DNA from: Polyangia bacterium
GTDB taxonomy: Bacteria > Myxococcota_A > Polyangia > Fen-1088
Length of the DNA: 64,000 nt
Assembly (NCBI GenBank): GCA_036268875.1
Contig: DATATI010000091.1
Coordinates: forward strand, 13,513-77,512
Direction of reading: 5' to 3'
Positions within the stretch are counted from its first letter, which is position 1. Every line of letters begins with the position of its first letter. Made by a program: the position numbers and the translations under genes. The notes under the pieces were generated by a model, which saw nothing but the letters and a program-made list of their open reading frames with translations, did not search any database and was not told the origin of the DNA. Positions 25,547 to 41,975 of the stretch are shown piece after piece.

Positions 25547-26793
25547 CAGATCACCTCGAAGCGCAACGTCGGCGCGGTTGTCGCGGCGCCGGCCGGCCGC
25601 ACCTCGATGACGTCGCCGTGCAACAGATCGCAGCCGGCGCCGATCAGTTGCCCATCGACGCGCACCGCGACCTCGGCCGCGCGTCCGAGGCGCGCCACGC
25701 CGCTCGCAAATCCGATCGACAGGCCGGCCGCTTCGGCGAGCAACCGATCAAGCGGCAGCGGCCCGTCGCCGACCACCGCCAGCAACGCCCGATCGAGACC
25801 GGCGCCGCCCGTCAGCACCGCCGCGCCGTCGGCGTCGACGCTGAAGCGCAACGTGCACGTCGCGCCCAGCGACAGCTCGCCGTCGCCGTGCAGGGCCAGG
25901 GCCGCCGATACCAGCGCGCCGCCCAGGCGCACACCCGAACGCGAGCCGGCGTCCTCGATGGTCAGCGCGCCATCGCGGCGGGCCAGCAAGGCGTGGCGGC
26001 GCGACACGCCCGGATCGCGCAGCGGGATCTCTGCCGCCGGATCGCGTCCCAGCAGCGCCGGCGTGGCGGCGAAACGGACGCTGCGTCCGTCGGGCAAGCG
26101 AAGGGTGACGCCGCGGCCGCGGCAAAGCCGACTGTCCAGCCGATGCCCGAGCTCCCGCGCGCTGGCCGCCTCGGCGGTTCCTTCGGAGATGGCGGCCGCG
26201 GCGCTGACAGCGGCCAGGCGTTCGCCCGCGCCCAGCAACGTCTCGAACCGGCGCATGGCATCGACCGCCGTGGTCCGCGCGTGCTGCCGTCGCTCGATGC
26301 GGGCCAAAGCTTCTTCCATCTGCTCTATGTCGCCCAGGGCGGCGAAGGCGTCGGCGGCGTGGGTGTCGTCGCCCAACTCCTCGAAAAGGCCGGCCGCGCG
26401 CCGGTGCTCGGCGGCGGCGAACAGCAGCGTGGCGGCCAGGCGGACCGCGCGCTTGTCGACCTCGCTGTCCAGCGGCCTGCGCGTGAAGGTCAGCAGCGCG
26501 TTGGCGGCGGCGCAGCGGGGCGCGCGCAGCTCGCGATCGGCCGCCGCCGCTTCGCGCTTGCCGCGCCGACGGGTGCGCGCGACATCGTGAAAGGCCTGGG
26601 CCGCCGCCGTCAGATCCGCCAGCCCCACGCGCGGATTGGTCTGCGGCGTACCGGCCATCTTGAAAAGGAAGGTGATGGCCTCCCAGTTCTGCTGGGTGGC
26701 CAATCGTTCGACGAATCCACCGACGTCGTGCGCCTCCGCCGCTTGCAGGATCTCGCTTAGCGAGATGGTGCGTTCATCGGTGGGTCCCGGCAT
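25546..26793 (-). CDS. FHA-domain protein
   Basis: LGRDPAAEIPLRDPGVSRRHALLARRDGALTIEDAGSRSGVRLGG FHA signature; stop overlaps kinase start. Confidence 0.75.
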   Translation of the reverse strand: MPGPTDERTISLSEILQAAEAHDVGGFVERLATQQNWEAITFLFKMAGTPQTNPRVGLADLTAAAQAFHDVARTRRRGKREAAAADRELRAPRCAAANALLTFTRRPLDSEVDKRAVRLAATLLFAAAEHRRAAGLFEELGDDTHAADAFAALGDIEQMEEALARIERRQHARTTAVDAMRRFETLLGAGERLAAVSAAAAISEGTAEAASARELGHRLDSRLCRGRGVTLRLPDGRSVRFAATPALLGRDPAAEIPLRDPGVSRRHALLARRDGALTIEDAGSRSGVRLGGALVSAALALHGDGELSLGATCTLRFSVDADGAAVLTGGAGLDRALLAVVGDGPLPLDRLLAEAAGLSIGFASGVARLGRAAEVAVRVDGQLIGAGCDLLHGDVIEVRPAGAATTAPTLRFEVI

Positions 26794-28351
26794 GGAGTAT
26801 CATTTCATTATGCTCCAGCGTGTCGCGCTCGGGCAGGTGCGCTTCAACCTGCCGGGCCTGTCCACCGACGGGCGGGGCGTGGCCACTGGCCGGCAGTGCG
26901 CGATCCGGTTCGGAGCCATCGATCGGCTGGTGGCGTTCTTTCGCATCCTTTCGGCGCAGCGCAATCTGGATGATCTGCAGCCCGGCCTGCGCCTTTTGAA
27001 CGCCCGCGGCGCGGCTGGCCCGCGCGAGATGATCGTCATCCTGCCGACCGGATCGACGCACCTGGCGGACGCGATCGCGTCGGCGGCGCGCACCGCCGGC
27101 GGCCAGTGTTTCACCGGCGATTTGAAACATTTCGTGCAGTACCGCGACGGGCGCGCGCCGCTGGGCTACGACGCCGCCGAGGTGGCCACCGACCCGAGCG
27201 AAATCATTCTTTACGCCGCCGAGCAGACGGTGGCCTACCAGATCGAAAGTGAGCTGCCGTTTCCCAAGCTGCTTTTGCGGCTGCCCTTGCAGCGCCAGCA
27301 CGGCGTCCCCGCGGGGCCGCCCAGCGGCGGCCTGCTTTATGTGGTGGTGCGCCGGGGCCTGGGTCCGACGGTGGCGCAGTATCTTTACCGCGCGCAGCGG
27401 CTGGCGCCGCCCGGCGCCGGCGACGGGCGGCCTTGGCTGCGGGCCGCCGCCGCCTTGTGTGACGAGAGCAGCGACGGCAGCGCGTTTCAGCCCGGCCGAT
27501 CGTTCTGGTTGTTTCGTCTGGAAGGCCTTCCGGCGCGGATGATGGGCCTGCTGTCGTCGACGCCGGGGCTGGAACCATACGTGCCGGCGACGGACAACGT
27601 GGCCGTGGCTCTTGGCCATCGCCATCCGATTCATCTGGAGGCCTGCAAGTCCAGCTTTGCCGGCGATCGATTTTTTCTCTTCGCCGCCGGCGGGCGCGGT
27701 GTCACCGTGCTGTCTGCCCTGCCCACGCTGACCGCGCTGGAAGATCTGGTGCGCGTCGGCGGCGCCCGCGCGCAAGCGCCCGAGGTGACAGCGGCGCGCC
27801 TGGGTCCTCGTCCCGAGGTGGCCGTGCCGCTGCGGCTGGAAGCGGTCTCCGACGTCGAACGGCGGGCGGTGGCCACCTTGATTCCGTGGCGGCAGGTGTC
27901 GTGGTTGCGGCGCCTTTGTTACGCGCTGCCGGCGCCGGCGCTGCGCTCGCACCGGGTGGCCTTGCTGGATCGGGGCGTGCTGGTCCTGTCGTCGGGCGTG
28001 CTGGACGGAATTCCCTTCGGCATGTTGCTGGACAGCGCGGCGCCGGACGTGCTGGTGCCACTGGGGGCGCGGCTGCGACCGGCGGTTTCGCCGGCCCTGC
28101 TGGCGGCGAAGGTCGGCGCCAAGGACGGCGCGGTCGTCGTCTTCCCCGCGCTGGACGCCTTGCCCTTTCGCGTCCCGCCCGAAGTCATCGAGCCGCTGGA
28201 GCGACAGATCCTGGGCAGCGCCGAAGCCATCGCCGTCGACGCCGCCGAGCCGCGCCGCCACCCCACGCAAACAGTGGAGCCGGCGCCGGTGGAGATCGAA
28301 AACGACTGGCTGGGTCCCATGCCGCTGTGGGGACTGGGGCCGACGCGGTGA
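26792..28351 (+). CDS. Hypothetical protein A (519 aa, no recognisable motif); first gene of 4-gene module
   Basis: High GC3, AT-rich translation start; antisense ORF 26774..28270 is R/Q/H-rich junk. Confidence 0.6.
   Translation: MEYHFIMLQRVALGQVRFNLPGLSTDGRGVATGRQCAIRFGAIDRLVAFFRILSAQRNLDDLQPGLRLLNARGAAGPREMIVILPTGSTHLADAIASAARTAGGQCFTGDLKHFVQYRDGRAPLGYDAAEVATDPSEIILYAAEQTVAYQIESELPFPKLLLRLPLQRQHGVPAGPPSGGLLYVVVRRGLGPTVAQYLYRAQRLAPPGAGDGRPWLRAAAALCDESSDGSAFQPGRSFWLFRLEGLPARMMGLLSSTPGLEPYVPATDNVAVALGHRHPIHLEACKSSFAGDRFFLFAAGGRGVTVLSALPTLTALEDLVRVGGARAQAPEVTAARLGPRPEVAVPLRLEAVSDVERRAVATLIPWRQVSWLRRLCYALPAPALRSHRVALLDRGVLVLSSGVLDGIPFGMLLDSAAPDVLVPLGARLRPAVSPALLAAKVGAKDGAVVVFPALDALPFRVPPEVIEPLERQILGSAEAIAVDAAEPRRHPTQTVEPAPVEIENDWLGPMPLWGLGPTR
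26795..26812. promoter_or_regulatory. AT-rich island (gagtatcatttcattatg) at the junction of divergent genes; TATCAT -10-like box 6 nt before ATG 26810
   Basis: Only AT-rich stretch in ~2 kb of >70 % GC sequence. Confidence 0.3.
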
Positions 28352-29679
28352 CCGTCGACGCCGCTCACCTTCTGGCGGCTGGTGGCGGCGGCGAACTGGT
28401 CGACGCGGCCACCGACTTACCCGGCGGCGACCAAGGCGGCTCCGGCGCGGCCACCGACGACGCCGGCGCCGATCGCGCGCTGCTTCGATTCGTCACTCGG
28501 TTTTTGCTGCCGCTGGTGCGGGGAGGCGCGCTGCACGTCGGCCGACCGCTGGGACCGCGCCTGGTCGATCGGCTGTCGGCGCGCGTGGCCGTGGGCGGGC
28601 TGGCGTCGTCGGCCTGGTCGACGAAGGCGTTGGCGCCGGCGCCGGTGTCGTCCTCAGCATCGTCGGGTGTTCGTGGCGACGACGTGGTCGGCGCGCTGGC
28701 GGCGGGCCGTCACGCCGTGGCCTTGCGGTTGTTGTCGCGCGCGCGGGTGCCGGCGCTGGACCCGGCGACGGTGCGGCTGGGCGCGGCGCTGCACAACCTG
28801 CTGGCGCTGACCCACCCGGCGATCGAAGGCCGTGGCGCCGAGGGAAGGCAGGGCCGCATCGCCGTCGCCGCGCTGGAACTGGCCGCGCTGGGCCCGCCGC
28901 GCACCGTGGCCGAAGCGGTCGATCGTCATTCGCTGCTGGCGCGCCTGCCCGAGATCGGGCGCTCGGATCGTCTGGTTCACTATTGGCTGGGGCGCCAGGC
29001 GTTCGTTGGGCGGATGCCGCCGCGGCGGGTGACGGCGATGCCGCGTCTGCGGCAGGTGCGGGTCGAAACCTTCCGGCGTGGCTGGCTGCGCGAGATCGGG
29101 ATGCCGGTGTGCGCACGGCCGGCGTTCCTGGCCCTCAGCATCGCCAACCCGCTGGGCGAGACCGAAGATCTCTTTCGGCTGGAGCCGCCCGTCGGCTGGA
29201 GCCGCATCTTGCCGGCGCTGCGTTTTCCTGAACTGTCACGGGTAGTCGCCGGACGCGTGGTCGAGCAAGGGGTGCTGCGCGCGGGCGACGTGCTGGCGGA
29301 CGCGCTGTTTCGGTTTGCTTCGGGGCACGATCCGCCGGGCGGCGTCAGCCCCAGCGGGGCGGCCATCGCGTTCGCCATCCGTTTTTTATCGCATTGCCTG
29401 TGGCTGGATCTGCTGTTCGGCTCGCCGGCGGGCGCCGCCAGCGTCACGGCTGATCGTCCGCCGGGCCTAGATCTGGCGGTGATGCTGGTGGCGGCGCAGC
29501 GGATCTCGTCGGCGCTGGTTTGGCCGCCCGACGTGGCGCCCACCAGCGATCTCGGCCGGCGCTTCATCGATCGCATGGCGGCCATGGCGTCGCAGGTGCG
29601 CGAACGGCGCTCGCCGCGTTTTGACACCGCGGTGGGCGTGGCCAGCTTGGCCGCGCCGTCGCTGCGGTCGCCGCCGTGA
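28348..29679 (+). CDS. Hypothetical protein B (444 aa, GTG start overlapping stop of A: GTGA)
   Basis: Frame-1 ORF; only start compatible with upstream gene is GTG 28348. Confidence 0.5.
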   Translation: MTVDAAHLLAAGGGGELVDAATDLPGGDQGGSGAATDDAGADRALLRFVTRFLLPLVRGGALHVGRPLGPRLVDRLSARVAVGGLASSAWSTKALAPAPVSSSASSGVRGDDVVGALAAGRHAVALRLLSRARVPALDPATVRLGAALHNLLALTHPAIEGRGAEGRQGRIAVAALELAALGPPRTVAEAVDRHSLLARLPEIGRSDRLVHYWLGRQAFVGRMPPRRVTAMPRLRQVRVETFRRGWLREIGMPVCARPAFLALSIANPLGETEDLFRLEPPVGWSRILPALRFPELSRVVAGRVVEQGVLRAGDVLADALFRFASGHDPPGGVSPSGAAIAFAIRFLSHCLWLDLLFGSPAGAASVTADRPPGLDLAVMLVAAQRISSALVWPPDVAPTSDLGRRFIDRMAAMASQVRERRSPRFDTAVGVASLAAPSLRSPP

Positions 29680-29748: not shown

Positions 29749-30966
29749 ATGTCCGTCAGCGAAACAGCCCCCGGACGCATCCAATCGGTGCTGGATGCTG
29801 ACGCCTTGCGCGTGGGGCACAAGCTGCGCGAGGTGGGGCGCGAGCTGGACCAGCGTTACCTGGACAAGTCGGAGCTGGTGCGCCTGCTGCTGGTCACGCT
29901 GGTGGCCGGCGAGCACATGCTGATCGTCGGCCCGCCCGGCACCGCCAAATCGGCGCTGGTTCGGCACCTGGCGCGCCTCATCGATGCCCGCTATTTCGAA
30001 TATCTGCTGACCCGGTTCTCCGAGCCGAACGAGATCTTCGGCCCGGTGGACATCAAGGCTTTCCGCGAGGGCACCTACGTGCGGCGGGTGGAGGCGATGC
30101 TGCCGGAGGCGGAGATCGTTTTTCTCGACGAGATCTTCAAGTCGAACTCGGCCATCTTGAATGCGCTGCTGAGCATCCTGAACGAACGACGTTTCTTCAC
30201 CGGCAGCGTCAGCCTGAAGGTGCCGCTGTGCTCGCTGTTCGGGGCGACCAACGAAGTCCCGAACGACGACGCGCTGGGCGCGGTGTTCGATCGATTCTTG
30301 GTCCGGGCGCTGTCGGACAATCTGGACAGCTTTCATTTTCACGGGCTGGTCGAGCGCGGCATCCGCGGCGAGATCGCCGAGATCAGCGGCGCCGACGAGA
30401 TCCGCCGCCCGCTGCTGGCGCTGGCCGACATCCGCAAGCTGCAGACCCGTCTTGGTCAGTATCTGCAGTTCCCCGAAGAATGGATGGCCCGCTATAAAGG
30501 ATTCATCTTTCAGATCCGTTCGGAGGGCGTGACCATCAGCGATCGGCGGGTGGTCAAGCTGCTGAAGCTGTTCGCCGCCAGCGCCATCATCGACGGCCGC
30601 GCCACCGTCAACGACGGCGATTTTTTCGTTCTCAAGCACGTGTGGAACAGCGTCGATCAGGTGCCGATCCTGGCCGACGTCGTCGGGCCGGCGCTGGACA
30701 AGCACCACCGCGAGCACCCGGACGAAAGGCGCAGCGGCGCCACCGCAGCCGACCTTGACGGCATCCTGCGCGAGCTCGGGGTGATACGCGGCCTCTTGCT
30801 GGGCGGCGAGCCGCTGTCCGACGTGCAGCTTTTCTCGCAGCTGCGCAACCTGCAGGAGATCCGTTCGGCGCTGCAGGCGCTGGGCACTGACACCGCCAAG
30901 CAGATGGCCGGCGAGGTGGACAAGCTTTTGGAAGGCGTCTTCGAATCGAACCAATGGACCGGATGA
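29749..30966 (+). CDS. MoxR-family AAA+ ATPase, RavA-like (no LARA domain)
   Basis: Walker A GPPGTAKS; YFEYLLTRFSEPNEIFGPVDI and EAEIVFLDEIFKSNSAILNALLSILNERRF align with E. coli RavA. Confidence 0.85.
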   Translation: MSVSETAPGRIQSVLDADALRVGHKLREVGRELDQRYLDKSELVRLLLVTLVAGEHMLIVGPPGTAKSALVRHLARLIDARYFEYLLTRFSEPNEIFGPVDIKAFREGTYVRRVEAMLPEAEIVFLDEIFKSNSAILNALLSILNERRFFTGSVSLKVPLCSLFGATNEVPNDDALGAVFDRFLVRALSDNLDSFHFHGLVERGIRGEIAEISGADEIRRPLLALADIRKLQTRLGQYLQFPEEWMARYKGFIFQIRSEGVTISDRRVVKLLKLFAASAIIDGRATVNDGDFFVLKHVWNSVDQVPILADVVGPALDKHHREHPDERRSGATAADLDGILRELGVIRGLLLGGEPLSDVQLFSQLRNLQEIRSALQALGTDTAKQMAGEVDKLLEGVFESNQWTG

Positions 30967-32249
30967 AACGAAACCGCCGCGGACCCGATCGCGACGACAC
31001 CTTTGCCCCGTCACCCAAGCCCGTTCGCCAGCGCCGGGCGTTTTCCACGCTGGGCGGGCCGATCGAGCTCGGCGGCGCCAGCGCCGAGGCACGCCTGCTG
31101 GGAAGATTGCTGGACGTCGATCCCGGTTTGGCGCGCGCGCTGACCCACGGCTTTCACAGCTATGCCGGGCGCATGCACCCGTCGATCGCCCGCGGCGCCG
31201 TCGACGCTTTCAGCGCGGTGGGCGACACGGTGGTCGATCCGTTCTGCGGCAGCGGCACCGTGCTGGTCGAGGCGATGGGTCTCGGCCGGCGCGCGCTGGG
31301 CGTCGACGCCAGCCCCCTCGGCGTGGCCATCGCCGGCGTGCGCACCACCACCCTGGGTGAGGACGGCCGGGCGAAGCTGCAAGAGGAGGCGGTGCGCATC
31401 GCCGAGTCGTCGGGCGAGCAAGCGCGCAAACGCCAGCGGCCCGCCATGCCGGCCTGGTCGCAAAACGAGCTGTCGCGTTTTCACCCGCACGTTCTGCTGG
31501 AGCTTTTGGGCCTGCGCGCGCTGGTGATGGAGACCGACGCCGACGATGACGTGGGCCGCGCCTTGCGCCTGTGCCTGTCGTCGATCCTGGTCAAGTTCAT
31601 GAAGGCCGGCCCCGAGGCTCCGCGCGACGGCGAGACCAAGCGCATCGCCCGCGGGGTGCCGTCGCGCATGTTCGCCGATCGCGCGGCCGAGCTGGCGCAG
31701 GGCCTGGCCGCGCTGGAGCGGCGCACGCCGCCAGGGACGCCGGTGGCGCAGGCGCGCCTCGGGGACGCGCGCGATCTGTCCGCGATCAAACGCGGCTCCG
31801 TCAAGCTGGTGGTGTCGTCGCCGCCTTACGCCGGCACCTACGATTACGCCGCCCAGCACGACGTGCGGTTCACCTGGCTGGATCTGCCGCGCAAGCTGTT
31901 CCGAAAGACTCAGCTGGGCGCGCGCCACGCCAGCCTGGGCGCCGATCCCGACGCCTGGCGCGCCGGCCAGAAACAGTGGATCGCCGAGGTGGCGCGCGTG
32001 CTGGCGCCGGGCGGTCACGCCTTGTTGGTGGTGGGCGACGGCGTGGTGGGCGTGGAGGCCGAAGACGCGCCCGACGCCGTGGCCAGCGCCGCCGCGCCGG
32101 TGGGCCTCGAGCCGCTGGCGCGCGCCTCGCAGACGCGGCCGGTGATCGACAACCGTCTGCAGGCGATCTTCGCCAGCCGCCCGCGCCGCGAGCACTTGTT
32201 GCTGCTGCGTCGGTCGGGCGGCCGCGACGGCGTATCGTCGTCGCCCTGA
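30963..32249 (+). CDS. SAM-dependent amino-methyltransferase (UPF0020 / N6-adenine-N4-cytosine-like); ATGA overlap with ATPase gene (alt start 30954)
   Basis: Motif I VVDPFCGSGTVLVEA, motif IV VVSSPPYAGTYDY. Confidence 0.8.
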   Translation: MKRNRRGPDRDDTFAPSPKPVRQRRAFSTLGGPIELGGASAEARLLGRLLDVDPGLARALTHGFHSYAGRMHPSIARGAVDAFSAVGDTVVDPFCGSGTVLVEAMGLGRRALGVDASPLGVAIAGVRTTTLGEDGRAKLQEEAVRIAESSGEQARKRQRPAMPAWSQNELSRFHPHVLLELLGLRALVMETDADDDVGRALRLCLSSILVKFMKAGPEAPRDGETKRIARGVPSRMFADRAAELAQGLAALERRTPPGTPVAQARLGDARDLSAIKRGSVKLVVSSPPYAGTYDYAAQHDVRFTWLDLPRKLFRKTQLGARHASLGADPDAWRAGQKQWIAEVARVLAPGGHALLVVGDGVVGVEAEDAPDAVASAAAPVGLEPLARASQTRPVIDNRLQAIFASRPRREHLLLLRRSGGRDGVSSSP

Positions 32250-32292: not shown

Positions 32293-32523
32293 ATGGCCAA
32301 ATCACCATGTCCGCTTTCGAAGACGCAATTTCTCGAAAAGGCCGAGTCGGTGAAGATCACCATCGGCAACACGGAGATCGTCGCTGACAAGCGCGAGTTC
32401 TCCACCGGGTCCTTCGGTTGGTACTACAACGGCAAGACCACCGTCACCGTCGACGGCAAACCGCTGTCGGTGCAGGTTGGATTGAACCTGACCGTGGTGG
32501 GCAGCAAGGAAGCAGAAAGGTAG
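32293..32523 (+). CDS. Small (76 aa) Lys-rich hypothetical protein, predicted all-beta, lower GC
   Basis: Clean ORF with decent codon bias in an otherwise intergenic gap. Confidence 0.45.
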   Translation: MAKSPCPLSKTQFLEKAESVKITIGNTEIVADKREFSTGSFGWYYNGKTTVTVDGKPLSVQVGLNLTVVGSKEAER

Positions 32524-32669: not shown

Positions 32670-34862
32670 ATGTCTTCACTTGGACTCTGCGTTTCGTCGA
32701 AGGCTGCCCGCGCGTGGTTGGCGGTTTTGGTTTCGTCTTCATTGATTGGGATCGGCTGCGGCGGATCGTCGGGCAATCCCACCGACGGCGCGGTCGACCG
32801 GGTGAAAGACGGCGGCGGCAGCGGCGGCGCTGATGCACGCGGCAGCGGCGGCAGCGGCGGTGGAACCGGCGGCGGGTTCGGCAGCGGCGGCGCGTCCGGG
32901 ACCGGCGGCGGATTCGGCAGCGGCGGCGCGTCCGGGACCGGCGGCGCCAGCGTCGACGCGCCCGTCGACCACGCCGATGCCACCCTCGACATGCCGGCGA
33001 TGGATGCGGTGAAGCCGGTCGACGTTTCGGTCGATCACGGGCCGGATATGGCCATGGACACCACCGTTCCCAAGGACGTGGCGGCCGATGTGCCGCGCGA
33101 CGTTCCGGTGGACATGCCGCCTCGTTGCGCCGCCGGCGCGGCCTGCACGCTGCGCGGGGCGCCGGCCATCTGCAAGGCCAACGCCTGCGCTGCTTGCGTC
33201 GACACCACCGACGACGGCGCCTGCGTGACGGCGTACGGCGCGGCCCACGTCTGCGTGCGCGCCCGTTGCATTTCTGGCGATTGCCACACCTCGGCCACCT
33301 GCACGGCGGGCGAGATCTGCGGCGCCCGCACGGCCAACACCTGCGGCGCGTGCACGTCGGACGCGCAGTGCCGCAACGACACGCGCTATGGTTCGGCGTT
33401 CGTTTGCTTCACCACGCCGGGACAGGCCAACACCGGCAAGTGCGTGGCGGCGATGTGCACCGGCGCCGGCGTCGCCTGCGGCGCCAACAGCAGCGACGTC
33501 TGTTGCAACGCCAGCTGCGTGACCGGCAACTGCTGCACCGACGACGACTGCCGCAACAACCCCAAGTTCGGAGCCGGCTTTGCTTGCGGCACCAACCACA
33601 CCTGCTCGCGCTGCGACGGCGTCACCGGCAATCACTACTTCGTTGATCCCGCCGGCGGCAACGATTCCACCGCCACGGGCAGCGGACAGAGCGCCAATGC
33701 CGCCGTCCCCAGTTGCAGCTTCAAGACCATCACCCGCGCCCTGCAGATCATCGGCAACAACGCGCCCGTCGGCACCACCGTCACGGTGGTGGGAAAGACT
33801 GGCGCGACCACCAGCTTGCAGACGGCGGCGGGCCCGGCTGGCTCGCCGGCGCCGGAAGATCTGCCGATCACCGTCGGGACCAACGTGAAGATCACCACCT
33901 CGGGTGGCGCGATCTCGCTGGTGCTGCCGGCGGGAGCGGACGGATTCAAGCTGGCCGGCAACGGCGCCTCGCTGACACCGACGGCGACGGCGGCGCTGAT
34001 CATCGACGGATCGACCAGCACGTCAGGCTCGGGGATCGTGGTCGCGCCGGGCGCGGCGGGCACGGTCTCGATCAGCGACCTCACGGTGCAGAACACCGGC
34101 GATGACGGCATCACCATCAGCGAAGGCACCCTGAACATCGGCGCCGGCGTGGTGGTCAAGGGCGTCGGCTTGCCGTCGGAAACCGGGCGGCGCAGCGGCC
34201 TCAACGTCGCCGGCGGCACGGTGAAGATCGCCGTGCCGAACGGTCAGACGCAGACGTCGTTCAACGCGAACACGGAGAACGGCATCCGCGTCACCGTTTT
34301 GGGCACGCTGACCATCAACGGCGTCGCCACCGGCGAGGGCACGGTGGTGGCCAAGTCGAACACGCTGGCCAACATCTTCATCAATCACACCCCGGGGGCG
34401 GCGCCCGCGGTCAGCAGCATCGACGGCGTCATCGCCACCGGCAGCACCAACGGCGACGGCGGCTTCCAGATCCTGGGCGGGTCACGCGTGAAGCTCAGAA
34501 ACAGCATGGTGCTGGGCAACGCCAAGGCGGGCGTGGCCATCGGCGCGGCGGACGCCACGGCGGCGGGCAGCGCCTTGGCGGGGATCGATCTCGGCACGGC
34601 GCAGGATCCGGGGCGGAACGTGTTGCAGGCGGCGTTGGGGTCGAACTCGAACACCGGCGCAGGGCTGTGTGTTCAGCTTGACGCTGATGCCGGCAACCAG
34701 ACCCTAGCCGCCGCCGGCAACACCTTCGCCGGTCCGCGCGACTGCGCCGCCGTCGCGCCCGGGGCCATCACCAAAGGCATGGACTGCGGCGCCCGCGTCG
34801 ATGAGGCCGTGGTGCCGGCCACCGGAACCACCGTCACTGTCACAATCAGCAACTGCCAGTAA
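32670..34862 (+). CDS. Lipoprotein with Gly-rich linker, Cys-rich domain and right-handed parallel beta-helix (pectate-lyase-like) domain
   Basis: Lipobox LIGIGC; AGGAG SD; beta-helix rungs ..GDDGITISEGTLNIGAGVVV.. Confidence 0.7.
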   Translation: MSSLGLCVSSKAARAWLAVLVSSSLIGIGCGGSSGNPTDGAVDRVKDGGGSGGADARGSGGSGGGTGGGFGSGGASGTGGGFGSGGASGTGGASVDAPVDHADATLDMPAMDAVKPVDVSVDHGPDMAMDTTVPKDVAADVPRDVPVDMPPRCAAGAACTLRGAPAICKANACAACVDTTDDGACVTAYGAAHVCVRARCISGDCHTSATCTAGEICGARTANTCGACTSDAQCRNDTRYGSAFVCFTTPGQANTGKCVAAMCTGAGVACGANSSDVCCNASCVTGNCCTDDDCRNNPKFGAGFACGTNHTCSRCDGVTGNHYFVDPAGGNDSTATGSGQSANAAVPSCSFKTITRALQIIGNNAPVGTTVTVVGKTGATTSLQTAAGPAGSPAPEDLPITVGTNVKITTSGGAISLVLPAGADGFKLAGNGASLTPTATAALIIDGSTSTSGSGIVVAPGAAGTVSISDLTVQNTGDDGITISEGTLNIGAGVVVKGVGLPSETGRRSGLNVAGGTVKIAVPNGQTQTSFNANTENGIRVTVLGTLTINGVATGEGTVVAKSNTLANIFINHTPGAAPAVSSIDGVIATGSTNGDGGFQILGGSRVKLRNSMVLGNAKAGVAIGAADATAAGSALAGIDLGTAQDPGRNVLQAALGSNSNTGAGLCVQLDADAGNQTLAAAGNTFAGPRDCAAVAPGAITKGMDCGARVDEAVVPATGTTVTVTISNCQ
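32865..32948 (+). repeat. Tandem 36-bp duplication (x2.3) encoding TGGGFGSGGASG in Gly-rich linker
   Basis: Units 32865-32900 and 32901-32936 differ at one base. Confidence 0.7.
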
Positions 34863-34928: not shown

Positions 34929-36344
34929 GTGACGGTCACGGACGCCCGCGGCGACGACGGCGAGACGGAGCTCGGGCGCCAGCTCGCCACGCTGGCGCTG
35001 TCATGTGTGCGGCCCTCGGGATCGATGGAGGCCATCGCGGCGGTGTCGTGGTGGAACATGCTGGCGCGCCTGGGACTGCAGCTGCCGCTGGTGGTGGTGC
35101 ACGACCTCGGCTTGTTGCTGTCGCGCGGCCGGGAAGGGCGAGGGCGCGAGGTGGTGCGCCCCCCGGGCGCCGCGGCGGTGGTGGGGCGGTACCACGCGCT
35201 GCTGACGACGGTGGCCGCGTCGGAGATCATCGACGAACTCGGGGCGGCGCCGCTGCACGACGACGCGGTGGCGGTGATCCTGGCGCGGGTCCTGGGCGAC
35301 GTGTACCTGCGCTGGCCGGCGCGGCCGCGCCTGGGGCCGCGCAGCGACATCGATCAATTGCCGTCGGCGTCGCCGCTTTACGACCGCGACCGGGCGGCAC
35401 CCGGCGGCGAACGGGATGCCGGGTGGGCACTGCCGTTTCTGCAGCGGCTGTGCGATCTGGAACGGCCGGTGCTGGCCCGCTTTGATCAGATTGATGCGGC
35501 GGCGCTGCGCCTTCTGGGGTTGTTCTCCGTCGACGCCGGGCTGGCCGACCTGGCCGATCTCTACCAGTTGGTGGCTACGCCGGGCACCGCCGACGTGGTG
35601 GATTTTTCACTGCAACTGCTGCCGTCCCTGCTGGAGACCAAGCGGCGGCCGGCGGCGCAGCGGTTCTCCATCGACGGTTACGCGTCGGTCGAACGGCGCG
35701 GCAGCCTGGACGCGCTTTTGCCCGGAGAGCTGGCCCACGACGACGACAGCTTCGCCCTGAAGGCGCTGTCCGACGATCTGCTGTTTTACGGCCACGAGCG
35801 CCAGCAAGAGACCGGACGCAAGCTGCACTATGTGCTGGTCGACGCCAGCGCATCGATGCGCGGGACGCGGCAGGTCTTCGCCCGCGGGCTGGCCCTGGCC
35901 CTGTGCAAGAAAGTTTCGCTGATGGGCGGCGAGGTGTGGGTGCGCTTCTTCGACAGCCGCCTTTATGATCGACTGGACATCGGCGGCGCCGGCCGCCGCG
36001 ATCTGCCGCGGTTTCTGTGCTTTCGTTCCGAACGCGGGCGCAATTACACCCGGGTGTTCTCCGACCTGGCGGTCGAGGTGACGCGGTTGCGGCGCGAGCG
36101 CGGGCGCGACATCGCGCTGACCTTCATCACCCACGCGGAATGCCACATCCCGCTGCCCATCGTCGAAGCGCTGGCGCGCGAGGCGTATCTCTACGGAATC
36201 TTCGTGCAGCCGTCGAAGCCGCTGGAGCTGGAATACCTGCCCAAGCTGCACCGCCATCAGGTGGTCACCGCCGATTCGCTGTCGCGTTCGGCGGACAAGC
36301 GGCGCCGGGCCCTGGACATCGTCGAGGACGCGGCGATCGGCTGA
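34929..36344 (+). CDS. VWA-domain protein, ViaA-like architecture (N-domain + C-terminal VWA with MIDAS VLVDASASM)
   Basis: DxSxS MIDAS at ~aa 305; GTG start; stop overlaps next gene (TGATG). Confidence 0.75.
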   Translation: MTVTDARGDDGETELGRQLATLALSCVRPSGSMEAIAAVSWWNMLARLGLQLPLVVVHDLGLLLSRGREGRGREVVRPPGAAAVVGRYHALLTTVAASEIIDELGAAPLHDDAVAVILARVLGDVYLRWPARPRLGPRSDIDQLPSASPLYDRDRAAPGGERDAGWALPFLQRLCDLERPVLARFDQIDAAALRLLGLFSVDAGLADLADLYQLVATPGTADVVDFSLQLLPSLLETKRRPAAQRFSIDGYASVERRGSLDALLPGELAHDDDSFALKALSDDLLFYGHERQQETGRKLHYVLVDASASMRGTRQVFARGLALALCKKVSLMGGEVWVRFFDSRLYDRLDIGGAGRRDLPRFLCFRSERGRNYTRVFSDLAVEVTRLRRERGRDIALTFITHAECHIPLPIVEALAREAYLYGIFVQPSKPLELEYLPKLHRHQVVTADSLSRSADKRRRALDIVEDAAIG

Positions 36345-38158
36345 TGGCCACGCGCGACGAGATCGACACCAAGGATCGCGCCGACCGAGCGCTGCGCGGC
36401 GGGCGGGCGCGCGAGGCGCTGGGCCTTTACAGCACACTGCTCGGGCGCGTGCAGGTCTTCGAGGCGGGGCTTTACGACAGCTGGCTGGAGGGCGCGCTGG
36501 CGGCGTACCAGGCGCTGCGCCGCGGGCGCGAGGCGGGTTATGTGCTGCTGGCCTTGCGCCGGTTCGCCGAGGCCCAGCGGCATTTTCCCGTCGACGTCTA
36601 CCCGCACGAATGGGCGCTGTGCGCGTCCAAGCTGGGGCGCCACGGCGAGGCGGCGCGCGTGCTCAGCGACGCCGGCCACCCGGCGCTGGCAGCGGTCGAG
36701 CTGGAATCGTCGGGCGCACACACGGCAGCCCGCCTCGAGTGGGAGCGCGTGCTGCGCGATCCGCGCCTGACCGGCCAGCCGTATGAAACCGCGCTGGCGC
36801 ACTTCAACCTGGGAGAGGCCCTGCTGCGCACGTACGAACGTGCCGGCGCCGAGCGCGCGCTGACCATCACCCAGCGCCTGCTGGAAGAGCTGGCCGACGA
36901 GTTCGAGACCCGTGGCGAGCGCGAGCGCGCCTTCGACTGCTACAGCATCCTTTTGCGCCTGGGTCGGGACACCGGATCCTTCGAGAACGTCGCCGAGGGT
37001 TACTTGAACGGCATCCGCATCCTGGCCAGCGACGATCAAAAATTCTATGTCCTGCAGTACTACGAAGACTTTCTGGCCTTCGCGGTCGAACAGAAGGAAT
37101 GGTACGCCGCCGCCACCCTGGCCCGCGAGGCGGCGGATTTCAGCCTGAAAGCCGGGCTGGTCTACGATCGGCATTACCTGCAGCGCGCCGCCACGCTGTG
37201 GGGGGAGACCGCGCGCCACAACGAAGCCAGCGGCGGGCCACCCGAACTGTCGGAGAATGCCTTGCACGCCGGCATCGACGCCGGCACCTCGGCCGGCGAT
37301 CTGTCTTTGTGCGGACGCCTGTACACGCAGCTGGCGGCGTTGCCGCTGACGCCGAAGAAACGCGCCCGCTACCGCCTGCTGGCCCAGCGGTACGGCAGCG
37401 TCACGGTCGAAGCGCCGCCGGCGCCGGCGCTGCCGGAATATCTGCGGCGGTCCGGCGCCTATCAGGACGTCTGGCGGCAGGATCTGATCGAATGGGAGCT
37501 GGACGGCGATCCCAAGTCGGTGCTGGCACGCCTGGTGGTCGATCGCACCGACCACGCGCGCTTCTCGCGTCTGGCATTGCGCGCGCTGTTGCTGTGCGCG
37601 GCCCCCGGCGATGACCAGGCGGCCGACGATCCCGTCGCCATCAGCGAGGTGGCGATGGCCTTGGGCCGCATCCAGGTCTACGAAGTGCTGCGCCCGCTGG
37701 AGCGGCTTTACTTGCACCCCTCGTCGCAGGTGCGCGCCGCCGTGATGGGCGGCGTGGGCCAGGTGTATTGCAAGCGCAGCTTCGTGCTGGTGCGCAAGGG
37801 CCTTGGCGATCCCGCGCCGCTGGTGCAGGACGAAGCCCTGCGCGCCTTGCGCGGCCTGCGTTTCCGCGATGGCTTCGATCCGCTGGTGCGCATCTTCCGC
37901 GAATCCACCGACGAGCGCGTGCGCGTGGCGGCGCTGGAGACCATCGCTGACATCGGTTCGTTGGAAGCCGGCCTTTTCTTGCTGGACGTCATGCGCCATG
38001 AGACCGGCGTCCTGCGCAACACCGCCGAGGCCCGCCTGACCGTCTTCTCGGGCGACGACATCACCGCCACAGTCCGTCAGTACCTGGACCGCGAGACCGG
38101 CGAGCGCCGCGAGAGCCTGCAAGCGATCTTGAAGTCGCTGACCACGTCCAGCGTGTGA
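36344..38158 (+). CDS. TPR/HEAT-repeat protein (PBS-lyase-like HEAT repeats at C-terminus)
   Basis: Start ATG 36344 (MATRDEID) overlapping upstream stop; longer track ORF from 36017 is out-of-context. Confidence 0.6.
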   Translation: MATRDEIDTKDRADRALRGGRAREALGLYSTLLGRVQVFEAGLYDSWLEGALAAYQALRRGREAGYVLLALRRFAEAQRHFPVDVYPHEWALCASKLGRHGEAARVLSDAGHPALAAVELESSGAHTAARLEWERVLRDPRLTGQPYETALAHFNLGEALLRTYERAGAERALTITQRLLEELADEFETRGERERAFDCYSILLRLGRDTGSFENVAEGYLNGIRILASDDQKFYVLQYYEDFLAFAVEQKEWYAAATLAREAADFSLKAGLVYDRHYLQRAATLWGETARHNEASGGPPELSENALHAGIDAGTSAGDLSLCGRLYTQLAALPLTPKKRARYRLLAQRYGSVTVEAPPAPALPEYLRRSGAYQDVWRQDLIEWELDGDPKSVLARLVVDRTDHARFSRLALRALLLCAAPGDDQAADDPVAISEVAMALGRIQVYEVLRPLERLYLHPSSQVRAAVMGGVGQVYCKRSFVLVRKGLGDPAPLVQDEALRALRGLRFRDGFDPLVRIFRESTDERVRVAALETIADIGSLEAGLFLLDVMRHETGVLRNTAEARLTVFSGDDITATVRQYLDRETGERRESLQAILKSLTTSSV

Positions 38159-38169
38159 ACGTTGATCGC

Positions 38170-38481
38170 CTAACGCCGCCGCCGGTAAATCGCCCACGCC
38201 GCCAGCGTTGCGATCATCACGACTGGCACCACCAGCCGCGGCCCTTGGTGAGCGGCGACGTTGCCGCTGACCCACAAAACGCAGAAGAGCGACGCCATCC
38301 CGACCACCAGCCAGCGCAGGTATCGTTGCGATGAAGCCAGTTTTTGCTGTTGTTCCTGGCGCACGCGGCCGAGCTCGGCGCGCACCCAGTCGACGTCGAT
38401 CGGTTCGCCGCGCTGCTGGCGGGCCACCTGTTCGTCCAGGTAGGCCTGGCGGTCGCGGCGATCGTGGTTGCCGGGTGGCAT
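38170..38481 (-). CDS. Small 2-TM membrane protein
   Basis: Two C-terminal hydrophobic helices; downstream of PLD-like gene same strand. Confidence 0.45.
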   Translation of the reverse strand: MPPGNHDRRDRQAYLDEQVARQQRGEPIDVDWVRAELGRVRQEQQQKLASSQRYLRWLVVGMASLFCVLWVSGNVAAHQGPRLVVPVVMIATLAAWAIYRRRR

Positions 38482-38502: not shown

Positions 38503-39537
38503 TCAGGGCGGCGCGCCGGCGGCGGCGTCGGCGGCGATCGTCGCGCTGACGCGCGCGGCGGCGGTCGAATCGTCGACGATGATTCCCACCTCGCGGTTGT
38601 GGTCCATCGACGCGGCGGTGAGGTTGACCGAACCGACGTACAGCCGCCGGTGGTCCGCGACGATGGCCTTGGCGTGTACGGCCGGCGCACCAACGGTCCG
38701 CACGCGCACGCCGGCCGCGACCAGCCGGGCCAGCGCCGATTTGGTGGCCGACGATTGATCGGCGGCCGGTGCCACCACCGTGAGCGCCACGCCGGCCGCC
38801 GTCGCGTTGGCCAGCGCAGCGACCACCCCGGCATCGGAGAGTTCTTCCATTTCCACGTCGAGCTGGCTCTGCGCGCCGTCGATCAAGGCCAGCAGTGACG
38901 CCCGCGCGTTCTCCGGCGCGCTCAGCAGGCGCCCGCCGGGCGCCGCCGTCGCTGTGTCGTTCCGATCGGCGGCGATCATTGCCTGCGCCGCGGCGACGTC
39001 GGCGGGTGCTTGGTCCACGACGGCGAACTCCCGGTTGGTGGTCAGTCCGGCGTGGGTGAGGTTGCAGGTCATCAGCACCGCTTCCTGGCCGTCGACGACC
39101 AGCAGCTTGGTGTGGGTCAAGGCGAAGCGCGCGCTCGACCAAACGACGTCGACACCGGCCGCTTGCAAGCGATCGTGCGCGCCGCGGTTGGCGGTCTCGG
39201 CGCCGAAGGGATGAGGCTCTATCACCACCGTGACGGCGCGGCCGGCGGTGGCGGCGTCGACCAGCGCGGCGATCACCTGATCGTCGGTCAGCAGATAGAT
39301 CTCCAGCGCCACTGTGCGGGTGGCGGCCCGAATCAGCGTCGCGATCGGCGGTGGGCCGTCGTCGGGTTGCACCCGCAGCTCGACGGGGAGACCAGACCCA
39401 TTGCCGGCGGCGCCTGAAGTGTCGAATGACGGCGGCGCGCACGACGTTCCCGCGACGGCGAACGCCAACCAGCCGATCGCACCCAAGGCCGGTACAAGCG
39501 CAGCCAACCGCGACGGTGGACGCAGGAAGTGAATCAC
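38503..39537 (-). CDS. Phospholipase D-family protein with two HKD motifs (cardiolipin-synthase-like), secreted/lipoprotein
   Basis: LTHTKLLVVD...N and VHAKAIVAD...N; GTG 39537 preferred over 39681 (upstream part low GC3). Confidence 0.7.
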   Translation of the reverse strand: MIHFLRPPSRLAALVPALGAIGWLAFAVAGTSCAPPSFDTSGAAGNGSGLPVELRVQPDDGPPPIATLIRAATRTVALEIYLLTDDQVIAALVDAATAGRAVTVVIEPHPFGAETANRGAHDRLQAAGVDVVWSSARFALTHTKLLVVDGQEAVLMTCNLTHAGLTTNREFAVVDQAPADVAAAQAMIAADRNDTATAAPGGRLLSAPENARASLLALIDGAQSQLDVEMEELSDAGVVAALANATAAGVALTVVAPAADQSSATKSALARLVAAGVRVRTVGAPAVHAKAIVADHRRLYVGSVNLTAASMDHNREVGIIVDDSTAAARVSATIAADAAAGAPP

Positions 39538-39706
39538 GCCAGTCTCTTCGGCCGCCGCTGCCCGCGGGTTGCGCGCCGGCTGCTTGAAATTGGCGTGATC
39601 ACGGTTTGATCCGCGCTGAATCTCTGCCCCCTTGCCGGCGTTGCGAATCTCCATCGATCGGATAAGGTGATCGACCGTCACGAACCCTGGACTTGACCTT
39701 GCTCCG

Positions 39707-39737: not shown

Positions 39738-40049
39738 CTTATGCCTCCCTGGGCCCGGATTTTTCCCCATGCAACGAGTCGCCATGGTCGCGGCCGGGCA
39801 ACTGGGGCGCGAGCAGATTGATCTCGTGCCGCTGTCGCAATCGGGATGGTCGCCGCCGCCTTCGACGGCTGAACTGCCCGCGGCGGGGCGAATGAACAGC
39901 GGTGGATCTGCCACGCCGACGGCTGAGGCGGGTCCGGCCGCTTTGTTCGGCCGCCCCACTGCGAAGACAAGGTGCTTCGCCGGAGGCCGCGGCGGCTGGG
40001 CATGCGCCGTCGCGACTGCACGCGCTCGGGTGGGGTCCGGAATCTGTCA

Positions 40050-41975
40050 ATGGGGTTTTGCCTGTGGGGGATTGTTTTGAAAATTAATAAAGCGCTGGGT
40101 GTTCGTCGATTCTTGGTGGCGGGTCTTCTTCTGGTCGCCGCTGGCTGCTCGTCGCCTCATGCAGACATCTCGCCGGATGGCGCCGCCGATCGCCCCAAAA
40201 CCATCGATCAGGCGGGGCTGCCCGACGCGCCCACCGAGACGAATGACGTCCCCGCAGATTTCGCTGTTGCCGGTGACACGGCCGTGATCGACACCGAGCC
40301 GCCCGCCGACGGGAGCCCCGTGCCGGCGGTGGCGATCACCACCGCCGGGCCGCTGATGCGCGCCACCGTCGGCGTGAAATACGCCACCACCATCACCGCG
40401 TCGGGCGGCGTGCCGCCTTACACGTTCACGCTGCCTGGCCTGCCCGCCAGTCTGTCCTGGCTGTCCATCGACGGCGACGGAACGCTGGGCGGAACGCCTT
40501 CGCAAGCCATCGCCAACCCGGTGAACCTCACGGTGACGGTGCACGATTCGCGCAGCGATAAGACGCCCGAATCGACGGCCATGCGGACCTATGCGCTGTC
40601 CGTGGGCGCCTGCGCGGAAGGAACGCAGATCGATTGCGCGGGAGCGCTGGCCGGCGGAATGGCCTGCGGGTTCGGAAAGAGCACCTGCACCGGTGGCGTC
40701 CCCGCCGCCTGCGTCGCCACCACGCCCTCGACCGACACCTCCCGCTGCGGGGCTACCTGCGGCGCCTGCGACGCCAACACGGCCAAGACATGCGCCGGCG
40801 GTGTCTGCCAATGCGGCGGCGCCAACGCCTGCACCGGCGGCGCCACCTGCTGTGGCAACGGCGCGACAGCCGGCTGCTTTGACACCACCACCAGCATCGA
40901 CAACTGCGGCGGGTGCGGCCTCAAGTGTCCGGCCGGCGGATATCACTGCGACCACGGGTGCAAGTGCGGGGCGGGCGGCGTGTGCGGCGCGGGAGAGACC
41001 TGTTGCGGCTCCGGCGCCGGCGCCAGCTGCATCGCGCTCGGGCAGAGCATGAGCAACTGTGGCGCCTGTGGCCTGGTCTGCGATGCCACGCGCTCCAACG
41101 CCTGCTCTGGCGGCGCTTGCAAGTGCGGCGCGGCGGCGCAGTGCGCGGCCGGGCAGACCTGTTGCGGGGAAAGCTGTTTCGACCTGGCCCACGACGTCGA
41201 CCACTGCCTGGCCTGCGGGTCGACCTGCGATCGCAACAAGGCGGACAACTGCCTGAACGGCTGCCGCTGCGGCAACAACGCCGCCTGCGGAAACGGACAG
41301 ACCTGCTGCGGCGGCGCCTGCGTCGACACGTCGACCAACACGAACCACTGCGGTGGTTGTGGCAAGGTTTGTCCGGCCGGCACCAACGCTTGTTTGACCG
41401 GAACGTGCAGCTGCGGCTCGCACGTCGGCGTCTGCGGCGCGGGAACCACGTGCTGCACTGACAACTGTTACAACCTGACGATGTCGGCCTCCAGCTTCAA
41501 CTGCAAGACCTGCGGCCACTCGTGCCTGGGCGACGCCTGCAGCACGGGCGCCTGCCAGCCGACCCCGGTGTCGGGAGCCGCCGCTGCTCCCTACAACTTT
41601 CCCGCCAGCAGCTCGGCGACCTCGTTCGGCGGCCATACCTATACCCTCAATTACGCCACGGCGCCGGACGGGAACCAGGATCCGGCGATCTTCAAGGACG
41701 GCAGCACGACGGCGTTGTGTATCTGGGCCACATACAGCGGCGCCAACGAAGAAGTCGCGTTCGAAGGCCTTGTCGCTGACGCCAACTTTATTTACGGCCT
41801 GCTGAACGGCGGTCCGGAGGGACTGTTCAAGTGCCCTGTGGGCGGCGGCCCCGGTGTCACTCTGTTTGAATCGTCCGCAGATTATGCGCGCAACGGACTG
41901 GTCGATACCGGCACGGCGCTGTACTGGGAGGCCTTCAACGGCACCACCGAACAGGTCTATCGCCTGGTGAAGTGA
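40050..41975 (+). CDS. Lipoprotein with He_PIG-like Ig domain and ~7 tandem Cys-rich repeats (C-x-C-G..TCCG..C-x-D..NCGxCGxxC)
   Basis: Signal/lipobox LVAAGC; alt start TTG 40077 with GGGGGA SD; PPYTFTLPGLPASLSWLSIDGDGTLGGTP motif. Confidence 0.7.
   Translation: MGFCLWGIVLKINKALGVRRFLVAGLLLVAAGCSSPHADISPDGAADRPKTIDQAGLPDAPTETNDVPADFAVAGDTAVIDTEPPADGSPVPAVAITTAGPLMRATVGVKYATTITASGGVPPYTFTLPGLPASLSWLSIDGDGTLGGTPSQAIANPVNLTVTVHDSRSDKTPESTAMRTYALSVGACAEGTQIDCAGALAGGMACGFGKSTCTGGVPAACVATTPSTDTSRCGATCGACDANTAKTCAGGVCQCGGANACTGGATCCGNGATAGCFDTTTSIDNCGGCGLKCPAGGYHCDHGCKCGAGGVCGAGETCCGSGAGASCIALGQSMSNCGACGLVCDATRSNACSGGACKCGAAAQCAAGQTCCGESCFDLAHDVDHCLACGSTCDRNKADNCLNGCRCGNNAACGNGQTCCGGACVDTSTNTNHCGGCGKVCPAGTNACLTGTCSCGSHVGVCGAGTTCCTDNCYNLTMSASSFNCKTCGHSCLGDACSTGACQPTPVSGAAAAPYNFPASSSATSFGGHTYTLNYATAPDGNQDPAIFKDGSTTALCIWATYSGANEEVAFEGLVADANFIYGLLNGGPEGLFKCPVGGGPGVTLFESSADYARNGLVDTGTALYWEAFNGTTEQVYRLVK

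Follow-up and report, generated by a model that had tools for sequence, protein, structure and literature searches.

In a 64,000-nucleotide (nt) stretch of Polyangia DNA (the window, taken at its full length), we studied a gene cluster around the open reading frame (ORF) at 34929-36344, here named X. X is probably the vWA adaptor of a bpMoxR-family ATPase encoded 4 kb upstream, with a TPR/HEAT repeat protein as its tightly coupled partner and with inserts interrupting the cluster. We assign X to that ATPase because the ATPase and adaptor genes adjoin in related myxobacteria. The window has a G+C content of about 69%, and its closest matches were metagenome-assembled Polyangia (myxobacteria) genomes.

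An earlier note on this DNA had pointed to a protein with the motif VLVDASASM about 4 kb from the ATPase, coupled through TGATG to a TPR/HEAT protein of 604 amino acids (aa); the ORFs, the motif and the overlap were all as described. The end of the ATPase gene and the start of X are 3.96 kb apart, with a methyltransferase gene, a 76-aa ORF and a 730-aa ORF between them. A promoter and terminator scan of 29.5-38.6 kb found none in the methyltransferase-X gap, a result that is uninformative at 69% G+C. The features from up1 to the TPR/HEAT gene are:

26792-28351, + strand: up1, 519 aa, conserved, fvmX7/bpX2-related (37 invariant columns across 24 orthologs)
28348-29679, + strand: up2, about 443 aa, conserved (GTG start overlapping the up1 stop codon, GTGA)
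29749-30966, + strand: MoxR-class AAA+ ATPase, bpMoxR family, 405 aa (Pfam bpMoxR 2.3e-73, AAA_5, AAA_lid_8)
29929-29952, + strand: Walker A GPPGTAKS of the ATPase, residues 61-68 (translation)
30954-32249, + strand: S-adenosylmethionine (SAM)-dependent methyltransferase, 431 aa (Pfam N6_N4_Mtase 1.2e-14, UPF0020; 13-nt overlap with the ATPase gene)
32293-32523, + strand: 76-aa ORF (recent addition upstream of X)
32670-34862, + strand: putative lipoprotein, 730 aa (lipoprotein-like N-terminus; between the 76-aa ORF and X)
34929-36344, + strand: X, predicted vWA adaptor protein, 471 aa (GTG start; AlphaFold2 (AF2) model, Foldseek, hhalign)
34938-35636, + strand: N-terminal all-helical domain of X, residues 4-236 (DSSP on the AF2 model)
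35820-36338, + strand: predicted vWA domain of X, residues 298-470 (AF2 model and Foldseek)
35832-35858, + strand: VLVDASASM of X (encoded sequence)
35841-35855, + strand: DxSxS part of the metal ion-dependent adhesion site (MIDAS), D305-A-S307-A-S309 (conservation in 49 sequences)
36344-38158, + strand: TPR/HEAT repeat protein, 604 aa (one-base stop/start overlap with X)

X, its partner and the ATPase

Homologs of X were numerous, with at least 1475 matches in a word-indexed search and 523 clusters at 50% identity in an exhaustive one. With more than 1,400 homologs and that many clusters, the X gene is real and not a chance ORF. Judged by their conservation, both X and the TPR/HEAT ORF are far beyond chance ORFs, and an identical 471-aa X was called independently in a JGI assembly (P0001).

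Sequence models were blind to X, so structure prediction together with Foldseek was needed to recognise its fold. X matched no model in Pfam, NCBIfam or PADLOC, and searches of the PDB with the single sequence and with a profile returned nothing meaningful. The AF2 model, based on 49 diverse members, reached a pLDDT of 89.7 and a pTM of 0.85, and presented a helical part (residues 4-236), a short linker and an alpha/beta part (298-470), the latter vWA part with pLDDT above 90. When compared with the PDB by Foldseek, it matched only vWA domains at probability 1.00: complement C2a, NorD from the NorQ-NorD complex, the MIDAS domain of MDN1, BatB, and integrin I domains. On this model, the C-terminal domain of X is a vWA fold.

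A remote relationship to ViaA was also detected. Against the E. coli ViaA sequence (483 aa, from NC_000913), hhalign gave 92.8% probability and an E-value of 3.9e-7, with X 253-421 colinear with ViaA 255-442; the alignment begins ahead of the vWA domain, at a common 'LLPxELA' stretch. Pfam ivWA matched 18 of 49 X relatives weakly (best 1.2e-5) and window X not at all at E up to 1, and VWA_CoxE was touched by two of the 49 (E 0.016), again with no match for window X. From these comparisons, 'ViaA-like' is a fair term for the architecture of X and its remote relationship, with X lying outside all ViaA/CoxE sequence models.

The earlier note had described X as a MIDAS-type VWA protein: the fold stood, but a complete MIDAS did not, only DxSxS being present. 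We assigned the MIDAS residues from the alignment and the secondary structure of the model, not from coordinates. D305 is conserved in 48, S307 in 44 and S309 in 45 of the 49 sequences. The position of the ViaA MIDAS Thr is taken by R371 (46/49), and the [T/S]-D motif at the end of beta-4 is replaced by T401-H402, with H402 invariant (49/49). As far as the alignment tells, the MIDAS site of X is degenerate: it keeps DxSxS, and the canonical Thr and beta-4 Asp are gone. A similar loss of metal ligands was described in the vWA proteins of FtsH-type and beta-propeller-type systems (Kaur et al. 2020, PMC7159879).

X is also related to P0251, a protein composed of WD40, helical and vWA parts (phmmer E 1.3e-24 over X residues 15-366), in which the segment between the WD40 and vWA domains aligns with the helical domain of X. 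The helical and vWA module of X is fused to other partners in the distant relatives P0258, P0262, P0265 and P0266, these partners being a right-handed beta-helix, a small GTPase-like region plus Lcl_C, Lcl_C alone, and FGE-sulfatase.

The stop codon of X (TGA, 36342-36344) shares one base with the next ATG (36344-36346). The HEAT gene follows X directly in 35/35 loci of the window's own Polyangia clade (group A, X at least 60% identical), and the gap between both genes does not exceed 10 nt in 51 of 68 related loci, which argues for coupled synthesis and a stable complex. The 604-aa protein presents HEAT_2 at residues 485-563 (2e-12); among its orthologs, HEAT_2 was found in 26/26 and TPR_2, in the N-terminal part, in 18/26. 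It is conserved end to end, with 52% mean column identity, invariant M1 and A13 and no variable region.

Some further observations concern this partner. Its central motif EEVADDFETRGERERAFDCY...GSFENVAEGY is nearly invariant in the 26 orthologs, nine of which weakly matched SNAP, the soluble NSF attachment protein that serves the AAA+ ATPase NSF as adaptor; RPN7 was matched by five. The X-to-HEAT gap widens to 2-7 kb in L080, L081 and L090. Ser/Thr-kinase-like matches lie about 1.6-2.4 kb downstream of the X start in L080-L083 (a 688-aa ORF in L080), and in L080 and L081, both Kofleriaceae, the kinase-like ORF sits between X and the HEAT gene; this makes it a second, independent kinase association with the cluster. 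In one Polyangia subclade (L003, L007, L092), three conserved genes of about 565, 540 and 247 aa, of no known family and absent from the window, stand between the HEAT gene and a downstream pair encoding a membrane protein and a PLD-family protein.

The upstream ATPase scored 246.1 bits on Pfam bpMoxR (PF20030, threshold 27) and also matched AAA_5 and AAA_lid_8, a MoxR-type AAA+ module with a RavA-type lid. Its Walker A, GPPGTAKS, fits the GxxxTAKS variant, which is that of the MoxR of FtsH and beta-propeller ternary systems (PMC7159879). Identity to RavA was 36% over 290 aa, and in the PDB search RavA came at 1e-43, with the next match at 1.8e-7. The alignment ends at RavA residue 297 of 498, the ATPase being without the LARA domain and the C-terminal region, and on the RavA equivalog of NCBIfam (NF010054) the ATPase reached 177.5 bits vs. 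a cut-off of 681. On these scores, RavA is the closest characterised relative of the ATPase, which is itself a bpMoxR by family.

Linkage and inserts in related loci

The linkage set comprised 80 species-representative loci fetched around X homologs and several metagenome contigs, and all the window proteins were mapped onto them. Apart from group A, we considered group B (X 49-56% identical) and group C (Haliangiales/Kofleriaceae, X 43-48% identical). For ATPase linkage we counted species-representative loci whose sequence extends 5 kb or more upstream of X (n=53), and for up1 and up2 loci having an upstream flank of 8 kb or more (n=48).

Conserved linkage in related loci, set by the earlier note as its refutation test, was found: the same ATPase family lies upstream of X, on the same strand, in 43 of the 53 loci. 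For group A this holds in 24/26 loci, with the methyltransferase in between in all 24, and for group C in 19/22, the alignment gap between ATPase and X being below 500 bp in 15/22. Measured by ORF ends, the group C gap is 7 nt or less in 7/27 loci, start/stop overlaps included. Further upstream, up1 precedes the ATPase in 37/48 loci and up2 follows up1 in 36/48. Comparison of these gene orders showed up1-up2-MoxR-X-HEAT as the ancestral order. It also showed that a methyltransferase gene joined the operon later in the window's Polyangia clade, and that the 76-aa ORF and lipoprotein came in at the same junction in the closest relatives.

The methyltransferase, found in every Polyangia-clade locus with the ATPase (24/24) and absent from all Haliangiales/Kofleriaceae loci, is by its distribution an older, clade-wide member of the operon, not a private insertion. 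Its likeness to DNA N4/N6 methyltransferases is about as strong as that to tRNA m2G methyltransferases; since in both cases the likeness is confined to the surroundings of the SAM-binding motif, the substrate (DNA, RNA or protein) is open. Its motifs run from DPFCGSGT (near residue 95) to the catalytic SPPY (near residue 290), an order permuted relative to the Pfam N6_N4_Mtase model.

The other two genes at this junction have a much narrower distribution, occurring together only in the window and one 95%-identical relative. The 76-aa ORF is 100% identical at the amino acid level in L011, against 89-98% for the proteins around it; in L013 the ORF is 90% identical and lies directly upstream of X, and it is absent from all other loci. 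Its G+C is 0.57 vs. about 0.70 in the neighbours, and it had no match in Pfam, NCBIfam or PADLOC. Only in the window and L011 (89% identity) is the 730-aa lipoprotein gene placed between the methyltransferase and X; no Pfam match was found for it, and the 'beta-helix' label given to it before was not confirmed. By this distribution, the 76-aa ORF and the lipoprotein are a recent two-gene insertion. Other close relatives carry other inserts or unrelated genes at the junction upstream of X.

Many related loci have relatives of this Gly/Cys-rich lipoprotein (38-45% identical) encoded past the PLD gene, on the opposite strand; in L020, L022, L026 and others they lie on the - strand about 4.6 kb downstream of the X start. 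Thus, the copy before X may be a relocated or duplicated neighbour.

The earlier note had offered two explanations for the distance between ATPase and X. An insertion into an ancestral ATPase-vWA operon proved right, because both genes are adjacent in relatives (group C) and the inserts at the junction are of different age, the methyltransferase being clade-wide and the two-gene insert recent. A larger multi-component locus was borne out as well, since up1, up2, MoxR, X and HEAT are accompanied by a divergent FHA protein and a kinase.

Several points weigh against X being the adaptor of this ATPase. No ATPase was found within 5-10 kb in 10/53 loci, including 5/5 of group B, where housekeeping genes surround X-HEAT; the same is seen in a group A subclade. 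The junction upstream of X has been repeatedly rearranged in the window's subclade, so separate expression of X-HEAT is clearly possible. The MIDAS of X is without two canonical ligands, and for this reason metal-dependent peptide capture is uncertain. Besides, we only infer the physical contacts MoxR-X and X-HEAT, by analogy, and no client or effector was identified for the cluster.

Some of these loci could also be explained if X-HEAT were an autonomous module not needing the ATPase, whose vicinity would then be gene order inherited within one bacterial class. X and HEAT are the tightest pair of the cluster, and they stand alone beside GluRS, radical SAM, FolD, QueG or GAPDH genes in several lineages, with no MoxR within 10 kb in any of the five group B loci. 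Moreover, the X search gave about five times the matches of the up1 search (at least 1475 vs. at least 284), each search covering up to 8000 candidates. However, ATPase-X adjacency, often with a near-zero gap, extends across orders in which X is only 43-48% identical, and it persists despite differing flanks and an otherwise broken gene order. Distant X homologs in other phyla-level systems are also beside bpMoxR, and vWA proteins with the architecture of X classically partner MoxR ATPases. We consider an autonomous X-HEAT module quite unlikely.

Accessory genes, proposed working and role

Other genes flank the ATPase, X and the TPR/HEAT gene:

24287-25546, - strand: TPR-Ser/Thr protein kinase, 419 aa (Pfam Pkinase 1e-38; TPR region N-terminal)
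25546-26793, - strand: FHA-domain protein, 415 aa (Pfam FHA 1.2e-10; back to back with up1)
38170-38481, - strand: membrane protein, 103 aa (cluster membership doubtful)
38503-39681, - strand: PLD-family protein (PLDc_2 1.7e-39; cluster membership doubtful)

Orthologs of up1 scored 53-55 bits on Pfam fvmX7 ('FtsH ternary system domain X7', cut-off 24) and also touched bpX2; window up1 reached only bpX2 (E 0.024). The protein has many invariant polar residues. Its AF2 model (pLDDT 72.5) presented tandem alpha+beta modules, for which Foldseek found no significant match in the PDB, the best hits (E about 0.02, ferredoxin-like designed proteins and AcrB subdomains) being non-informative; by sequence, up1 had no PDB relative either. 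For up2, none of the 23 orthologs matched Pfam.

The FHA and kinase genes keep their position divergent from up1 in group A and in several group C loci. The listed starts of the FHA gene (26793) and up1 (26792) leave zero intergenic space between them, so one of the two start calls is probably wrong. In L093 (10001-12884), up1-up2 is found with a fused FHA-kinase ORF upstream, while downstream the ATPase, methyltransferase, X and HEAT are all missing. Hence, the cluster can also be broken at the junction of up2 and the ATPase, although this is a long-read contig with fragmented genes and an assembly error is possible.

The 103-aa membrane protein and PLD genes follow HEAT throughout the Polyangia clade only, neither of them being detected close to X in Haliangiales/Kofleriaceae. 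In PADLOC, the PLD protein hit DrmC-like models (1.2e-33), and it presents a hydrophobic, signal-peptide-like stretch if translated from an internal start codon. Beyond it, at 39972-41975, lies the gene of another putative lipoprotein (667 aa, rich in Cys), which carries an Ig-like (He_PIG) domain and Stig1-like repeats of CxxC-type modules.

RavA-ViaA, NorQ-NorD, CbbQ-CbbO and midasin provide the paradigm for MoxR-vWA function (PMC7159879). By analogy, the ATPase of the window would form a hexameric ring, on which X would dock with its modified MIDAS face holding a peptide of the client protein; ATP hydrolysis would then remodel or release the client. More speculatively, the TPR/HEAT protein, made stoichiometrically with X, would most likely be a scaffold or a client-recruiting platform. 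As candidates for clients or for phospho-dependent regulators we regard up1, up2, the FHA protein and the Ser/Thr kinase; the last two could, again more speculatively, gate the system by phosphorylation.

The same gene content could be read as an anti-phage or conflict island, where a MoxR-vWA threshold switch would control an effector, the methyltransferase would self-mark and the PLD protein would be a DISARM-like, nuclease-like effector. The bpMoxR, ivWA and fvmX7/bpX2 families were defined from predicted conflict systems, FHA and kinase domains are known in such systems, and, together with the DrmC-model match of the PLD protein, the methyltransferase matches type II methyltransferase models. 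We nevertheless regard a defence role as unlikely. Local synteny and end-to-end conservation extend across Polyangia, Haliangiales and Kofleriaceae, and no component has a hypervariable region. When nine proteins (26.6-39.7 kb) were searched with PADLOC, no DrmA, DrmB or other core gene was found, only the generic MTase_II and the DrmC-like PLD. The PLD gene, which runs on the opposite strand, is linked in one clade only, the methyltransferase is missing from the ancestral-type loci, and some X-HEAT pairs lie among housekeeping genes. A DISARM-like system as such was rejected, as its core DrmA helicase and DrmB (DUF1998) were not found among these nine proteins.

With X taken as the adaptor of the upstream ATPase, we tentatively suggest that the cluster may represent an undescribed fifth MoxR-vWA class. 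It would be a vertically inherited, probably housekeeping and phospho-regulated remodelling machine of Polyangia-class myxobacteria, with a His/Arg-MIDAS, ViaA-like adaptor (possibly metal-independent), a TPR/HEAT scaffold, and up1 and up2 of new fold. If so, the 'conflict' MoxR-vWA modules of the Kaur type would also have a conserved cellular role.

MoxR-vWA pairs are widespread, but a client is known for only a minority of them. This locus defines a large, conserved and uncharacterised vWA family, its 523 clusters having no Pfam model, with a fixed partner set: a bpMoxR ATPase, a TPR/HEAT protein, two further proteins, an FHA protein and a kinase. The series from adjacent genes, to an inserted methyltransferase, to more inserts, to unlinked genes provides natural experiments on which contacts need coupled expression. 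The MIDAS of X, with its invariant His and near-invariant Arg, makes it a testable vWA adaptor that may have abandoned metal-dependent binding. The locus also illustrates that 'conflict system' families can be found where synteny is kept and inheritance is vertical. Until there is a phenotype, its practical impact remains modest, and the cluster is not categorically new.

Relation to known MoxR-vWA systems

Among characterised systems, E. coli RavA-ViaA is the closest pair. The AAA+ module and lid of RavA are those 36% identical to the ATPase, and ViaA and X share a similar length, the layout of a helical N-terminal and a vWA C-terminal part, and a colinear alignment. The ravA and viaA genes are adjacent in E. 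coli, like the ATPase and X genes in the window's distant relatives. The differences are the LARA domain of RavA, the absence of a VWA_CoxE match in X and its different MIDAS ligands; besides, further conserved partners belong to the window system, whose operon in this clade includes a methyltransferase.

The earlier note had called both proteins a 'RavA/ViaA pair'. This was supported as far as the nearest characterised relatives are concerned, but not in the sense of orthologs (RavA score 177 vs. 681, no LARA, no VWA_CoxE match). True orthologs would imply the same role, in maturation or modulation of respiratory complexes and in aminoglycoside sensitivity. RavA as the closest solved relative of the ATPase, together with the resemblance of X and ViaA, would fit such a reading. 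Nonetheless, we find it highly improbable: the equivalog score is far below its cut-off, the LARA domain and C-terminal region are missing, X fails VWA_CoxE and all NCBIfam models, the E. coli ravA-viaA operon contains nothing corresponding to up1, up2 and HEAT, and the MIDAS ligands differ. On the equivalog score, the missing LARA, the failed vWA models, the extra partners and the MIDAS differences, RavA/ViaA-ortholog identity was rejected.

NorQ-NorD is a further point of comparison, as the vWA domain of NorD was among the best Foldseek matches of X. NorQ-NorD and CbbQ-CbbO supply the general model of an AAA+ ring with a vWA adaptor remodelling a client. They belong to a different MoxR subfamily, with NO reductase and Rubisco as clients and a canonical MIDAS, and no sequence-level relation to the window proteins was detected.

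The families of the window cluster point to two types of ternary systems. With the FtsH-type systems (Kaur, Burroughs, Iyer, Aravind, eLife 2020, PMC7159879, subsystem 3), the window cluster has in common the bpMoxR ATPase with GxxxTAKS; the vWA protein is likewise divergent, with an N-terminal helical region and canonical metal ligands lost, and an fvmX7/bpX2-like accessory is probably shared. A direct connection is provided by L095, where the X homolog P0251 lies inside a canonical FtsH ternary system, with the gene order FtsH-type AAA protein, bpMoxR, fvmX2, fvmX3, P0251, TPR protein and bpX2-like protein. However, FtsH-type systems have a double FtsH-type AAA+ protein, fvmX2/fvmX3 and ubiquitin-like conjugation genes, which the window cluster is without. 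Apart from MoxR, no AAA family was found among the tested genes of the window (22.6-42 kb) or within 10 kb on either side in related loci, whereas L095 has one, and no fvmX2 or fvmX3 was seen in the window cluster. The hhalign comparison of the HEAT and up1 profiles with the flanking proteins of L095 gave no relation. The window cluster has no beta-propeller on X and no recognisable effector, presents conserved synteny, and has its own set of a TPR/HEAT partner, up2, and a divergent FHA protein and kinase.

The beta-propeller ternary systems (PMC7159879, subsystem 4) are the source of the bpMoxR model name. They resemble the window cluster in that the N-terminal helical domain of their vWA protein is long, a third component contains TPRs, extra alpha and alpha+beta proteins of no known fold are conserved, and a conventional effector is missing. 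Their vWA protein has a C-terminal propeller of about four blades, whereas in the model of X the last vWA helix reaches residue 470 of 471. Their third component combines a variable N-terminus, a membrane segment, TPRs and a propeller; that of the window has a conserved N-terminus, TPRs and C-terminal HEAT repeats, and no beta-propeller family was among the listed Pfam matches of the HEAT protein.

The arrangement of the window's cluster is not described in the text of Kaur et al. 2020 (PMC7159879), and a literature search on the Pfam family names gave nothing relevant. From the genomic context of P0251, the ivWA matches and fvmX7, the window cluster shares the ATPase family, and probably the vWA family and one accessory family, with subsystems 3 and 4. 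Judged by these families, the cluster is related, in reduced form, to the FtsH-type and beta-propeller-type systems (Kaur et al. 2020) and belongs to neither subsystem.

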